A stretch of DNA of 64,000 nt from an uncultured Desulfobacterales bacterium (lineage in GTDB: Bacteria; Desulfobacterota; Desulfobacteria; Desulfobacterales; Desulfococcaceae): NCBI GenBank assembly GCA_964505535.1, contig CAZDIU010000002.1, positions 3,303-67,302 on the forward strand. Reading direction: 5' to 3'. Within the stretch, counting starts at the first letter, position 1, and each line of letters starts with the position of its first letter. This document shows, in pieces, positions 55,246 to 61,167 of this stretch. A model generated the notes under the pieces. The model was not told where the DNA came from. It saw nothing but the letters and a program-made list of their open reading frames with translations, and did not search any database. The position numbers and the translations under genes were made by a program.

Positions 55246-56202
55246 CTACGCTGTTTTGTTGGTTCCGCTTTGCGCATGGAAGAGCGCAATGCTCTCCAGC
55301 ACATGGTTCATGTCCTTGATAATCTGCTTTGCCTGCGCTTCCAGCAGGGCAACTCCTCCTTCCTGTTTTTTGTTTTTGTTGATCATCTGCACAAATGCAA
55401 GGCAGGAACCGTTACTGAACGGACTGCCTGAAAATTCTGAATGCGCCTTTGTCCACAGGTCAAACACTTTCAAAGCGTCTTTGACCTTTACTGGCTGGGG
55501 CTGATTTGATTCCTGAACTTCAAGGCCGGGGATAACCTGCTTGGATTTCTGTTCCTTCAAGGCCGTGACTGCCGCCTTCATGTTCTTCACGCCTTTGCAC
55601 CGGCTGGCGTGTTTCCATGCCTGCTCCGGACAGTCGGGCAGGGTGTCCAGAATGAAAAAGGCCACTTCTTTGGGGCAGGTTCCGTCATTGACCGCTTTCT
55701 GAATATCCTCCGGCAGTTCACACAGCCGGATGGACTGTCTGACATAGGCGACTGCTTTTCCTGCCGCTGCCGCTGTCTTTTCCAGCGATGTTCCGTAATG
55801 GTTGATCTGTTTGTGCCATGATCTGGCCTGTTCCATCGGATGCAGATTTGACCGGGCATCGTTCTCTGCAATCTGCGCAAGATGGACTTCCTCATCTGTT
55901 GCATACGCTTTCAGAACGGCCTTGATTGTACCGTTTTTTCGCAGGGTTTCATTGTTCAGATGTGCCTGAAACCGGCACTCACCTGCAACAATCATCAGCC
56001 GGTCAGGTTTTGTAGGATGTTTCCGCACATGAATCGGATTATCCTGCCCCCGCTCCACAATGGAATTTCCAATGCCCATGATCTCGTCAATGGGCTTGGT
56101 CTTCCGGGGCTGATCCGGATCAACTTCCAACACTGCCAGAGGGCAGGTGAAAACCTGATCCACCACCAGTTCATTGATGTTGATTTCTGTTGTCATTGTC
56201 AT
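55246..56202 (-). CDS. parB: ParB/Srx-like nuclease-domain DNA-binding protein
   Basis: ATG at 56202 after AAGGAG. The N-terminal ParB box is DNPIHVRKHP...LMIVAGECRFQA (a GERR-type motif). Confidence 0.7.
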   Translation of the reverse strand: MTMTTEININELVVDQVFTCPLAVLEVDPDQPRKTKPIDEIMGIGNSIVERGQDNPIHVRKHPTKPDRLMIVAGECRFQAHLNNETLRKNGTIKAVLKAYATDEEVHLAQIAENDARSNLHPMEQARSWHKQINHYGTSLEKTAAAAGKAVAYVRQSIRLCELPEDIQKAVNDGTCPKEVAFFILDTLPDCPEQAWKHASRCKGVKNMKAAVTALKEQKSKQVIPGLEVQESNQPQPVKVKDALKVFDLWTKAHSEFSGSPFSNGSCLAFVQMINKNKKQEGGVALLEAQAKQIIKDMNHVLESIALFHAQSGTNKTA

Positions 56203-56412
56203 ACGCTTTCTCCTTTGTTTTCTGTTTTTGTTCATGCCAAAAACAAAAGGCATTCCCATTGCGGAAAATGCCCTTTGCTGCTGGTATGATGCCGGGGCCG
56301 GACTGCGCCCCGGTGATTTTTTTTATACCAGCTCCCACCCGTCCGGTGCAACGGTGTGGATAACCCGCACACCGCCTTTCCCGTCCGGGACTTCACGGGC
56401 AACACGGCAATC

Positions 56413-56443: not shown

Positions 56444-56523
56444 TATAGCAACTGGTTTTTTTGTCATGATTGTTTCCCCTTAAGATAAAAGTCGGGACTT
56501 ACGCATTGCTGCTGCCCAATTTC

Positions 56524-56880
56524 TCAGTTTACCAACCACCTATAGAGATCCATTAGTTCAAAATGGATCTCCATTCTAGACGTGTCGTAATGTCTAGAAA
56601 TGGCTATCCTCTCATCTTGTGGGTTAGTATAAAACCTGAAGCCCCAAGACTCTAACAGAATCTTGGAATCGTCTTTTGTTAAAGACGGACCCACGTCATA
56701 AGGATCGTGGGTATTGCAATTGCAATTTCCACCAAAAGGCCCCCCGCTATGGCAGCGAGGGAACACCTCTTGGAATGATCCTTTTCCGTCCTTCATAAGA
56801 ATTCTGTCATTCCGAGAATTCCTAGAAGGTCTTTCCCAAAATAGTGATGTGTTAACAACATCACATAAGGACATTTTCAT
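56524..56880 (-). CDS. hypothetical protein in AT-rich insert
   Basis: 118-aa ORF. Its base composition differs from the flanks. Confidence 0.45.
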   Translation of the reverse strand: MKMSLCDVVNTSLFWERPSRNSRNDRILMKDGKGSFQEVFPRCHSGGPFGGNCNCNTHDPYDVGPSLTKDDSKILLESWGFRFYTNPQDERIAISRHYDTSRMEIHFELMDLYRWLVN

Positions 56881-57086
56881 GAGTCATCTCCTTTATTTAC
56901 TAGTTAATATTATAATACAAGAATTTCTATATTTAAGCAGTCAATTTATAAATTTCCGCCGCAATAAAACCTCAACGACTATTGCTATTAATGCAAGTAG
57001 TTTATTTACGAAAATCAAAACGACTTAACTAGTTAAGTCGATGATATAGTCTAATCTATATAGCAATATATAGTAATTTATTTTGA

Positions 57087-57533
57087 ATCCTAAGCCTTAC
57101 ACTAAATAGTTTCCTAAAACAATATGGAAACGAAGAAATACAATTAGTATTTCCAAATAAAACTATTAAACTAACATTAAATGAAACACATTTCCTATGG
57201 TATTATATTTATACAAAAGATAAAAACATTACATGGAATATTTCAGATAATATTACTAATATCATAAGACAAGTTAATGCTGTATCATTAGATGAATTAG
57301 ATGATATTATTGATAAATATGATTCTATAGATAATATAGAAGATTTATATCAATTTTATTTATCACAACCCTCAAGCGGGGCAGGGTTTCACCTTCCTGA
57401 AACCCATACCACAGGTATGAACTTCAGGAAAGTGAAACTGTACAGGGGAACACAGGCTGCCGTCACACCTGTTCCTATCCTTTGCAGGACGCGGCAGTTT
57501 TTACGTGTCACTGTTTCCCCTGAAACAGTTTGA
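57087..57533 (+). pseudogene. ATG-less open frame (gene remnant) crossing an AT-rich/GC-normal junction
   Basis: 148 sense codons after a TGA with no ATG until codon ~111. The AT-rich part translates to protein-like ...LVFPNKTIKLTLNETHFLWYYIYTKDKNITWNISDN...DELDDIIDKYDSIDNIEDLYQFYLSQ. Confidence 0.3.
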
Positions 57534-58490
57534 ATAATATCGGACTGAAACACATACTGTCAGAATCTCATCCGAACAGGAACCCTTTTGCCCCGGCTAT
57601 ACGGCCAGGCAGTTGTCCTTCGCTTACTTTTCTCTCAGATTTTCCGGCATCCCATAAGTCCCATATTGCCCCGTCCGCAGTGAAAAACCTGCAAGAACGG
57701 CTCCCGTCTCTTCCCTGCATGTCCATTGCCCGTAAAGGCACAATGTCCCGGCCACCTCAGACACGTTTCCGTCCAGGGGCGTCCGCAGAGACACCGTTAT
57801 ATCTGAGAGATTTTCAGCTTCACTCCCGCCTGTCCCTTCGCACCTCAAGGCAGGGTTCCCAGATTCCGCCACTTGCGCACCAGGAGCAGGTATCACCTGA
57901 TGGTGGACGACCGGAACCGTTAAGCCGTCATGCCTGACAGCCTGATCCTCTGCACCCCACGATTCAAAAAGTGCAGAGTTTCTCCGTTTTGGTTACGATG
58001 GAGTTCGCAGGACGTTTTTTTACAGGCAATCCGACCGCCAACGGAAGCCAAACACCGGACTTGTACTCATCACTGCTGAATCCGTGATCCCGGAGCGAAC
58101 GGTTTCAGCATAGGCCAAAGAGTATGGGTTATGGGGATTTTGCGAATCAATCCCCGGTAAATACGCAGTCTGCTTTTTATCCGCCAGTTGACCGGACAGA
58201 CGGAACCCTGTTTTTGCGCACAGAGAACGATGCTTGGGAAACTCTGCCATGATGATTGATACTGCCAACGCATGGGAATCATGGAAACCATGCGCAGAGT
58301 GTTCCCTTTGGCTGCGGATTACATGCAGGGATTGCCGGAAATCCGCAAGGGAACGACCGGGAAAAACGGTATGCAGTTATCCATATTGATCAACGCGCAA
58401 CTGCTGATAGGTTGACCGGAATACCGTTTTTCCAAAACAGGGATTGAAAAACTCCCTTTTAAATCCCTGAACGTGTTCAGGAACTTAAAA
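57534..58490. other. ~1 kb ORF-free, hairpin-rich region (candidate large structured ncRNA or degraded gene)
   Basis: Only short P/S/R-rich ORFs in all six frames. There are many stems, including 57631-57640/57801-57810 (10 bp), 58300-58355 (7+8 bp) and 58363-58372/58421-58430 (10 bp). Confidence 0.3.
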
Positions 58491-58522
58491 GAAAGCCCGT
58501 CCTGATTCCAAGTCAGGACGGG
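58487..58522 (-). terminator. rho-independent terminator
   Basis: Perfect 10-bp stem CCCGTCCTGA/TCAGGACGGG. On the minus strand it is followed by CTTTCTTTT, just after the stop at 58530. Confidence 0.65.
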
Positions 58523-58529
58523 ATAAAGA

Positions 58530-58712
58530 CTATTCTGCAAACTTGGAAGCTACCTGATATGTTGTGGCAAGTCCCGCCGCCGTGCCTGTTGCTGTCAGTG
58601 CAACGGCTCCCAAGGAAGCTCCCACCAGTCCGGCAGGAAACATCAATCCCGCCGCAATCCCAGCCACAGAACCTATAAGGCATGTGGCTACAAATCCGAA
58701 AGATTTACCCAT
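58530..58712 (-). CDS. glycine-zipper small membrane protein
   Basis: ATG at 58712 after AAAGGA. 60 aa, GxxxG-rich: GSVAGIAAGLMFPAGLVGASLGAVALTATGTAAGLA. Confidence 0.5.
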   Translation of the reverse strand: MGKSFGFVATCLIGSVAGIAAGLMFPAGLVGASLGAVALTATGTAAGLATTYQVASKFAE

Positions 58713-58787
58713 TTTTTTAATCCTTTTATAATGGATTTTGCACAATTCTCACCAGTCCACTTGGGAATGCGGTATGACTTTTGCATT

Positions 58788-58837
58788 CCCCTCTTAATTA
58801 CTATGGAATCTCAATCGGAAAAGGTGAAGTAATTTTT
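58788..58837 (+). repeat. direct repeat copy 1 (stem-loop + T-run) upstream of RHH gene
   Basis: The core TTACTATGGAATCTCAATCGGAAAAGGTGAAGTAATTTTT is 38/40 identical to copy 2. It contains the arms AATTACT/AGTAATT. Confidence 0.6.
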
Positions 58838-58875
58838 CCGATTTTTTTAAACTTTTTTCCAAAGGATTGAAAATA

Positions 58876-59085
58876 ATGCCAAAAACTAAAAAAACCGACC
58901 AGCCGACCGGGAAAAACAGTATATATAAAAGATATACTATCACACTTCCCGAAAACATCAGACAAATAGCGGAAAAGATTGAGAAAAAGGAAAGACGGTC
59001 TTTTTCAAATCTTTTAGCAATCCTGATTGAAAAATATGCAATAGAATCAGGAGTTTCAAAAATTGTCAAAAATCCGCAAAAGTGA
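58876..59085 (+). CDS. ribbon-helix-helix (CopG/Arc-like) DNA-binding protein
   Basis: KRYTITLPENIRQIAEKIEKKERRSFSNLLAILIEKY fits a beta-strand plus two helices RHH pattern. Confidence 0.6.
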   Translation: MPKTKKTDQPTGKNSIYKRYTITLPENIRQIAEKIEKKERRSFSNLLAILIEKYAIESGVSKIVKNPQK

Positions 59086-59169
59086 CAGTTTGTAAATATC
59101 GGATATGTATTAAAAAAATATCCGATATGACAAAAATTGTCAAATCCTGTCAATTTCTTGTCTTTTTTC

Positions 59170-59218
59170 CCCCCTTACTTACTATGGAATCTCAACCGGA
59201 AAAAGTGAAGTAATTTTT
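59170..59218 (+). repeat. direct repeat copy 2, upstream of the sigma-like gene
   Basis: TTACTATGGAATCTCAACCGGAAAAAGTGAAGTAATTTTT, preceded by a C-run as in copy 1. Confidence 0.6.
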
Positions 59219-59358
59219 TAAAAAATTATAAGCTACTGTTTTTTATATCTTTATTTTTATTGATACATACTCAATACATATTTTGGCATATAAATTGCTT
59301 ATATATTTATAGGTGTTTTTATTTTTTTTAACCATAAAACAGATAAAGGAAAAAAAAC

Positions 59359-60777
59359 ATGAGAAAAATCAATGACTTGGCAAAAGATGTTATGGCAAAA
59401 AGAGGAATATCCAAAAAAAATCAGGATGTTGCGAACAAAACTTCGCATTCCCCTGAAAAAGTTGAAAAAACTGTTGACAAATGGGAAATCATTTATTTTT
59501 CTGTCATGAAAACAGCAGATTATGATGATTCCATGCCGGAAAATGCTGATTTTGTTCATAATTCCTTTGTGAAGTTTTATGAAAAATTCAAGGCTTCAGA
59601 TAAAGAAGCTGTTGATTTAATTAGACTTTTTAAGGCATTTCTGAAAAATGATTATCGTGATGAAAAAAAATCCATAGCGATAAGGAAAAAAACGATAATG
59701 TATGAGTCCGAAATTATTTCCATTTCTGAAGATGAGTCAAAAGAAATGGAAATATCTGATATAGGTGACAAGCCGCGAAAAAAACCAGAAGAAAATTTTC
59801 AGGCTTTATGTGTCAAATGCCTGAAAAAACTGCATAAACCTTTTCAAAGGAAAGTCTTCAAATCCATTTGGATTGAAGACAACACCATTGAAAAAACAGC
59901 GGAAAGTCTTAAGAAAACAGAACGTTACGTCAAGATGGTCAACGCGGAAATTTATGAAATCCTGAATTCTGAAAAATCTTTCGGAAGTTTGCAGGATAAG
60001 GCAGTTGAGAAAGCAAAGAAAAAGGAAAGAAATCAGGATATTTACACAGATTCTTTCGCTAATTCTTTATCAGATGATATGATTTCTGCTATATGCGAAA
60101 ATCCTGATATTATTCATGATCCTGAGTTCATGTCAGAAAATGAATATTTTGATCTCCGGAATGAACTCAGGAAAATAGCCCATGATAGATATTCAGATGG
60201 GCTTGAGGCATGGCATATCATTGGCGCGAAAAAAGGGGAATCATCTGATAAATATCCTGATCTTCTGGATTGGAAAGAAAAATTTCCTGAAAATATGGGA
60301 TTATGGAAGAGAATTCATTATTTGGCTGGGTCCGTCACCTATTATAATGATGAAGATATTCAGGAAAAACCTGAATTTAAAGAAAAAGTCTACAAAATAA
60401 AGGGAAATATCGCTTATCCGCGTTATATTCCTCTATATCGGAGATCGAAAACAAAAAAACCGCGATTTTACCGAATTACGGCAAAACTAGCGCACGATTT
60501 GCCGGATGGATATGGGTTTGATAGGTCAAAATGGTATTCGAAATCAGATGGGCTGCTTCAGAAAAATGAAATAAAAACAGATTATGTCATTCCTTATAAT
60601 ATGGAAAAAAGGATTTCTGCTTTTTATCAGCAAAATCAGAGAGTTATCAACGATACCGCTTGCAATGCTATAGAACGAGCGGAAATGAATCAAAGGTATC
60701 TTGACAGATATATATGCAGATATGCAGATGTTATTACTCTGCATAACAGACAGTTTGATGTCGTTTATGTTTCCTGA
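59359..60777 (+). CDS. AT-rich 472-aa protein with sigma70 region-4-like HTH
   Basis: LKKLHKPFQRKVFKSIWIEDNTIEKTAESLKKTERYVKMVNAEIYEIL matches the sigma r4/LuxR-type HTH layout. The C-terminal 270 aa are of unknown function. Confidence 0.45.
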   Translation: MRKINDLAKDVMAKRGISKKNQDVANKTSHSPEKVEKTVDKWEIIYFSVMKTADYDDSMPENADFVHNSFVKFYEKFKASDKEAVDLIRLFKAFLKNDYRDEKKSIAIRKKTIMYESEIISISEDESKEMEISDIGDKPRKKPEENFQALCVKCLKKLHKPFQRKVFKSIWIEDNTIEKTAESLKKTERYVKMVNAEIYEILNSEKSFGSLQDKAVEKAKKKERNQDIYTDSFANSLSDDMISAICENPDIIHDPEFMSENEYFDLRNELRKIAHDRYSDGLEAWHIIGAKKGESSDKYPDLLDWKEKFPENMGLWKRIHYLAGSVTYYNDEDIQEKPEFKEKVYKIKGNIAYPRYIPLYRRSKTKKPRFYRITAKLAHDLPDGYGFDRSKWYSKSDGLLQKNEIKTDYVIPYNMEKRISAFYQQNQRVINDTACNAIERAEMNQRYLDRYICRYADVITLHNRQFDVVYVS

Positions 60778-60800
60778 TTTATTCCGATTTCATTGATTTT

Positions 60801-60829
60801 ATTCCCTATCTGCTTAGCAGGTAGGGAAT
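60801..60829 (+). terminator. hairpin after the sigma-like gene (weak terminator)
   Basis: 12-bp stem ATTCCCTATCTG/CAGGTAGGGAAT, with one G-U pair that forms only on the plus-strand RNA. The T-run is poor. Confidence 0.35.
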
Positions 60830-60932
60830 TGTATGCGAACGAACAAGTCAACCTGCAGACCGTTATGTCTTTTTGTCCGGAACAAATCTACACGCGAAAG
60901 CGCGGAAAATAACGACAATTCCTTAACACTTT

Positions 60933-60961
60933 ATATGATATAAAGTGTTAAAAACCACCCC
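60933..60961. promoter_or_regulatory. perfect 13-bp inverted repeat (operator-like)
   Basis: TTAACACTTTATA-TGA-TATAAAGTGTTAA in the intergenic region upstream of 61168. Confidence 0.35.
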
Positions 60962-61167
60962 TGCTTACATCTTAAAGAGACCGGTCTTAAAAATATGACC
61001 GGCAGTATATCGCACAAAAAAATCCGGTCATGCGTTCATGTCCGGCAAAAAGCATTCAGAGTCAAAAAAGCAGTCCTTAAAAAAGTGTTGTCATTATGGG
61101 TCATTTTAAGTTATTCTTTGTAAGTATAAAAATTTTGCAAAAAGAAAACGGAAAGGAGCAGCAAAAA

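Follow-up and report, generated by a model that had tools for sequence, protein, structure and literature searches.

Results

The interval and its neighbourhood

The interval at 57534-58490 belongs to contig C2, an element of 75,921 nt assembled from an uncultured Desulfobacterales bacterium. The two termini of the element carry an identical 25 nt, an overlap which indicates that it is probably circular, and we probably have here a complete circular phage or phage-plasmid genome. We analysed a stretch of 64,000 nt (C2:3303-67302, hereafter the window), and all coordinates refer to it. The window is a densely packed phage genome with a GC content of approximately 50%, and the interval sits inside a block of normal GC content (approx. 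57369-58790) that is bordered by AT-rich islands (table 1). To the left are a sliding-clamp gene and parB, the latter with no adjacent ParA gene; the right-hand neighbours include an Arc/RHH-like gene, an AT-rich gene for a 472-aa protein and the gene for SSB. A 118-aa ORF at 56524-56880 on the minus strand has a strong ribosome-binding site, yet the phage's own model detects neither codon-usage signal nor three-base periodicity in it and no family match was found for it; it is either foreign or no gene.

Table 1. Features in and around the interval 57534-58490 (window coordinates).
Feature	Position	Strand	Details
parB	55246-56259	-	left of the interval
AT-rich islands	56900-57368 and 58790-61000		border the GC-normal block
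Dead gene fragment from a foreign AT-rich phage	56922-57368	+	promoter-like region plus codons 1 to approx. 95 of 246
Long imperfect hairpin	57386-57438		25-nt arms, 84% complementary, 3-nt loop; repeat pair I2
Second hairpin	57443-57522	+	holds CTGCCG...CGGCAG followed by TTTTT (57457-57502); from sequence reading and fold
Central ORF-free segment	57534-58200	-	faint minus-strand codon periodicity; fold without excess structure
Predicted structured domain of approx. 250 nt	58200-58450	-	several hairpins closed by a long-range stem; repeats I11 and I14
Two tandem intrinsic terminators of the 60-aa gene	58451-58522	-	terminator scan
Gene for a 60-aa glycine/alanine-rich membrane peptide	58530-58712	-	ATG preceded by an AAGGA ribosome-binding motif; shares the GC-normal block of the interval
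Spacer match, genome G001	57396-57432		35/37; in hairpin 57386-57438
Spacer match, genome G001	57656-57691		35/36
Spacer match, genome G001	58449-58471		overlaps the minus-strand terminator region

A dead gene fragment on the left flank

The left flank carries a start-less frame (57087-57533) whose translation shares 68% identity with residues 1-97 of P0003, a 246-aa protein from IMGVR_UViG_3300040801_001309. The latter is a complete 51-kb phage with a GC content of approximately 31% and inverted terminal repeats, in which the P0003 gene heads a structural operon. The similarity extends to the DNA, with 74% identity between positions 56922-57359 of the window, a segment that includes the upstream non-coding part, and positions 5455-5895 of locus L040. 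An ATC stands where the homologue has its ATG, residues 98-246 of P0003 are found nowhere in the phage genome, and the homology to L040 stops at the junction of AT-rich and GC-normal DNA (approx. 57362-57368). Together, these three observations identify the left flank as a dead fragment of a foreign gene, and the coincidence of homology end and composition junction marks approximately 57362-57368 as a recombination scar. The motif upstream of the fragment (56920-56970) recurs at least four times in IMGVR_UViG_3300040801_001309, in the manner of a repeated promoter.

Two hairpins follow, the first of them (57386-57438) just inside the GC-normal block. The second includes a stem at 57457-57502 that could plausibly serve as a plus-strand terminator; the terminator scan omits it because its loop is too large, so this role is one that we infer. 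A minus-strand match to a sigma-70-like promoter (CTGACA, 18 nt, TATTAT) at 57563-57534 faces left, into the hairpins at 57522-57386, and could give rise to a short RNA antisense to the terminal part of the dead fragment.

Coding potential

The first-pass annotation, which was made from the letters and a list of ORFs, had described the interval as devoid of credible ORFs, and frame lengths, a codon model and homology searches all confirm this. The longest stop-to-stop frames are 137 aa on the plus strand and 122 and 118 aa on the minus strand. We trained a codon model on 15 window genes; real genes score +20 to +37 bits per 100 codons in it, and every frame of the interval scores approximately zero or less. 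An intact protein-coding gene should show a long open frame that follows the codon usage of its genome, and the interval contains none. When stops were ignored, the best frame scored -41, a value attained by 1.6% of shuffles, and most control genes scored +17 to +34 per 100 codons.

The same annotation had offered a heavily decayed gene as an alternative, and this part of the proposal fares less evenly. In its favour, three-base periodicity is detectable across 57534-58490 (χ2 = 22.7, p = 9e-4), and the base pattern in the minus frame correlates with that of real genes (r = 0.56 overall, 0.69 and 0.43 for the two halves). The gene-like periodicity of this frame has about half the amplitude seen in real genes and is attained by 1.1% of shuffles. 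The minus frame 57597-58529 is interrupted by five TAA codons only, with no TGA or TAG, and the three minus-strand frames contain 1, 7 and 15 TGA codons; the number of stops in the best minus frame is nothing unusual. Owing to the scarcity of TAA and TAG, long frames in which TGA is the only stop are common throughout this genome. GC skew over 57350-58100 resembles that of the neighbouring minus-strand genes, and the adjoining dead fragment fits the same proposal. Homology, on the other hand, reveals no recognizable disrupted protein in any frame. The minus-strand read-through has no relatives among 1.84 billion protein representatives or in 100 related genomes, no paralogues were found in the phage's own genome or the host genome, and none of the six read-through frames matches Pfam or PHROGs. 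Evidence for a minus-strand orphan gene in decay thus exists but is weak (p about 0.01); the likeliest identity of the central segment (57534-58200) is such a gene or a spacer.

Recoding of TGA, TAG or TAA was considered and rejected. No suppressor tRNA was found: the phage contig encodes no tRNA at all, and none of the 33 tRNAs recovered from the host assembly, which is 90% complete, is a TAA or TAG suppressor. Furthermore, TAA ends 12 of 45 long ORFs.

Folding of the interval

Direct reading of the sequence and a repeat search located every stem listed in the first-pass annotation. Its description of the whole interval as dense in stems applies to the two ends but not to the centre (57550-58200), where 150-nt windows give z-scores of about 0 on the plus strand. 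Towards the ends, windows of the same size have z-scores from -4 to -6.5 (57300-57550) and from -2 to -6 (58200-58600), and the excess folding energy is confined to 57380-57530 and 58200-58520. Folded as units, 57365-57545 gives z = -5.7, 58200-58450 gives -5.4 (minus) and -3.5 (plus), and the central 661 nt give -0.16 (plus) and -2.96 (minus). For comparison, positions 1-32 kb of the window have a mean z of -0.96 (s.d. 1.4), with 3% of 200-nt windows below -4, which places both ends of the interval in the structured tail of this genome without making them unique. The long-range 10-bp pairing between 57631 and 57801 is near chance level, at our own estimate of approximately 0.4 such pairs per 957 nt.

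A single large, ornate RNA of about 1 kb had also been suggested. This is unsupported by the present analysis, since two thirds of the interval folds like shuffled sequence and no Rfam family matches it. The search that had been recommended, cmscan against all of Rfam, returned no match at gathering score anywhere in the window, and a permissive run over 56500-59500 with E-values up to 10 gave sub-threshold noise only. As far as Rfam 15 can see, these results exclude ROOL, GOLLD, HEARO/omega, group I and group II introns and retron RNAs; the riboswitch and sRNA families of Rfam likewise have no member that reaches gathering score in the window. Low folding energy along most of the length, a generic expectation for large RNAs, is absent, as only the ends are significant. 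An enrichment of GGA of the kind expected for a CsrA sponge was looked for, with a negative result. The best noise match was to a group I intron at 56979-57073 on the plus strand, outside the interval and in the foreign AT-rich fragment. With 33 bits, where the gathering score is 50, it is probably spurious because the full model of 253 positions is compressed into 95 nt.

The right-hand end

Minus-strand transcription would enter from a short gene for a glycine/alanine-rich membrane peptide. Over 58530-58745, which comprises this 60-aa gene and 11 in-frame codons upstream of it, the periodicity has χ2 = 24. The peptide has one relative, P0002, from a JGI metagenome (63% identity), and falls into no assigned family; candidate roles are those of a small toxin, a holin-like or a bacteriocin-like peptide. 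Directly after the gene are two minus-strand structures that both have the GC-rich stem, following T-run and position at a gene 3' end that define intrinsic terminators, at 58522-58496 (10 bp) and 58496-58451 (20 bp). With a plus-strand terminator-like stem on its left and these on its right, the interval lies between predicted convergent transcript ends. The structured domain at 58200-58450 is situated beyond both minus-strand terminators; its hairpins include one at 58300-58355 and a perfect 13-bp stem between 58360 and 58421, and its predicted fold is the stabler one on the minus strand.

Relatives and CRISPR spacers

No homologous region was found by blastn against GenBank phages and PLSDB plasmids, by exact-word scans of IMG/VR, JGI metagenomes and GTDB genomes, or by scans anchored on ParB, the clamp, the 472-aa protein and the 60-aa peptide. 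The same was true of 17 genomes of the host family together with a sample of the order (400 to approx. 480 genomes), and of five IMG/VR records related by terminase. The sole outside matches of the interval are three CRISPR spacers from a genome of the same genus, G001 (table 1), whose arrays (G001:C353 and G001:C5:29000-41118, our loci L008 and L009) repeat a 37-nt unit at least 262 times.

Approximately 20 of 260 G001 spacers match the window, all of them within 49.5-60.8 kb. The spacers change strand near 56 kb, and for about 14 of 17 their strand is that of the genes. We considered whether the spacers report the transcribed strand, as in RNA targeting by type III systems, and this was ruled out by a PAM-like flank: the 3' flank of the protospacers is conserved as TGA or CAA (equivalent to TCA/TTG on the 5' side in what is likely the true repeat orientation). 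This PAM points to a type I-like system that targets DNA and has gained spacers by primed acquisition from a related phage, and consequently the spacers tell us nothing about transcript strand. At the level of sequence they show that the interval is genuine phage DNA that also occurs in phages met by a sister species, with conservation not obviously below that of the coding neighbours. The spacer mismatches within hairpin 57386-57438 are not compensatory, with one pair gained and one lost. Two of the three protospacers in the interval are 95-97% conserved, equal to or better than coding neighbours, which in a tiny and biased sample hints at some constraint.

attC sites and integron cassettes

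Genuine attC sites are present elsewhere in the phage, and a covariance model (R1) was built from four of them, at 5712, 19230, 20620 and 21314, on which it scores 69-77 bits. Searched over 56-59 kb on either strand with E-values up to 10, R1 has no match. A word resembling half an attC site, AAC..TCAAGCGG, is found at 57367-57386, with its minus-strand GTT coinciding with the end of the foreign homology. The complementary half of this word is absent, its spacing is unlike that of real sites, and matches to the half-site with one mismatch also arise by chance. Elsewhere, R1 picked out a fifth, longer attC-like site at 5858-5946 on the plus strand (33.7 bits, E = 7e-7).

Discussion

The reading that we prefer, and to which we give about an even chance of being correct, is that the interval is an ordinary non-coding remnant, probably a decayed orphan gene, flanked by convergent terminators within an early region scarred by recombination. 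The interval would then not be one functional unit but an ORF-free remnant between two convergent transcription ends. Its left neighbour is a truncated, ATG-less gene fragment gained from an unrelated AT-rich phage, and the hairpins at 57386-57522 would stop plus-strand transcripts that start within this foreign fragment. On the other side, the hairpins at 58200-58522 would end and stabilize the minus-strand mRNA of the membrane peptide. The central 650 nt may be the residue of a minus-strand orphan gene, inactivated by nonsense mutation and now drifting.

Several observations count in favour of a remnant: the lack of a coding frame, of protein relatives and of an Rfam family; structure at the ends only; the tandem terminators and the adjoining dead fragment; and the periodicity, which appears in a single frame in both halves, together with the minus-strand TGA counts and the GC skew over 57350-58100. 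Against it, the coding-remnant signal is weak, the stop count of the best frame is ordinary, and a frame of 930 nt with TAA stops only and no frameshift is odd for old decay. The conservation of the protospacers and the position of the 58200-58450 domain (z = -5.4) past both terminators also sit uneasily with it.

Illegitimate recombination between phages leaves mosaic junctions and gene remnants. The locus shares with such junctions an abrupt change in composition that coincides exactly with the end of a gene fragment acquired from an unrelated phage, and non-coding leftover DNA next to the junction in an early region. It differs in that its central kilobase has no identifiable parent gene, and for this reason we infer its remnant status from the weak periodicity and the context. 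Comparison with convergent intrinsic terminators gives a similarly mixed picture. The minus strand has two GC-rich stems with T-runs behind the 60-aa gene, and the plus strand has a stem with T5 behind the dead gene fragment; however, the two ends are approximately 900 nt apart, far beyond the usual convergent gap, and there are additional hairpins (58200-58450) past the terminators. With ROOL, GOLLD, HEARO and the other large RNAs of Rfam 15, the interval has in common about 1 kb of ORF-free phage DNA with several hairpins, but it matches no covariance model and its central two thirds folds like shuffles.

The foremost alternative, which we regard as unlikely, is a smaller novel structured RNA of approximately 250 nt at 58200-58450, read on the minus strand and regulatory or stabilizing in function. 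It could be the 3' UTR of the peptide mRNA, reached by read-through, or have its own transcript, and the hairpin pair at 57386-57522 possibly belongs with it. The strand asymmetry of the 58200-58450 fold, the equally strong structure at 57365-57545, the minus-strand promoter-like site aimed into the left hairpins and the well-conserved protospacers all speak for such an RNA. They are offset by the lack of an Rfam match even at an E-value of 10, by the share of ordinary 200-nt windows in this phage (about 3%) that also fall below -4, by the absence of a promoter-terminator pair flanking the domain, and by the failure of phage, plasmid, metagenome and genome searches to find homologues. The more specific proposal that 58200-58450, perhaps together with 57386-57522, is a new phage RNA outside Rfam, transcribed from the minus strand past the membrane-peptide gene and controlling either the peptide or the early/late switch, seems to us improbable.

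A function at the level of DNA is a similarly slim prospect. The interval could be a replication origin, a site of partition or dimer resolution, or a field of operators for early control. It lies where gene orientation switches from leftward to rightward, between parB and the SSB/replication genes, on a circular contig that carries a ParB gene, and the minimum of cumulative GC skew falls nearby at approximately 59.1 kb. The 8-mer GGAACCCT occurs three times in the interval, at 57579, 57852 (minus strand) and 58202, against a single copy in the rest of the 64 kb. Proteins may bind it, or its clustering may be due to chance; the enrichment is borderline after multiple testing. An iteron-type origin is contradicted by the repeats, whose families are short (16 nt at most), of low identity and without iterons. 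The interval is also not AT-rich, and parB has no ParA beside it.

We consider it very doubtful that the interval codes for protein, whether as two or three small minus-strand orphan proteins (for example, 76 aa from an ATG at 58250, or 90-122 aa ending at 57624) or as one gene of approximately 300 aa that runs through TAA. In favour of coding stands the minus frame 57597-58529, in which five TAA codons are the only interruptions and where the periodicity is also found. Nevertheless, the individual pieces have codon scores no higher than those of shuffles and lack convincing ribosome-binding sites, and the search of protein representatives returned no relative. Reading through TAA, a normal stop in this phage, is further opposed by the tRNA complements of phage and host. 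Finally, an ORF-less integron-type cassette comparable to the integron cassettes or CALIN arrays of the same phage, for which the half-site-like word at the junction is the one point of resemblance, is highly improbable and largely refuted, given that the phage's own attC model finds nothing there.

If the interval is indeed a remnant between convergent terminators, it would hide nothing new, and the item worth keeping would be the small structured domain at 58200-58450. The locus would then be an example of how phage early regions gather dead fragments, here traceable to an unrelated AT-rich phage. It would also mean that a gene-free kilobase of phage DNA bearing hairpins should not be taken for an ornate RNA unless fold statistics and homologues support that reading.
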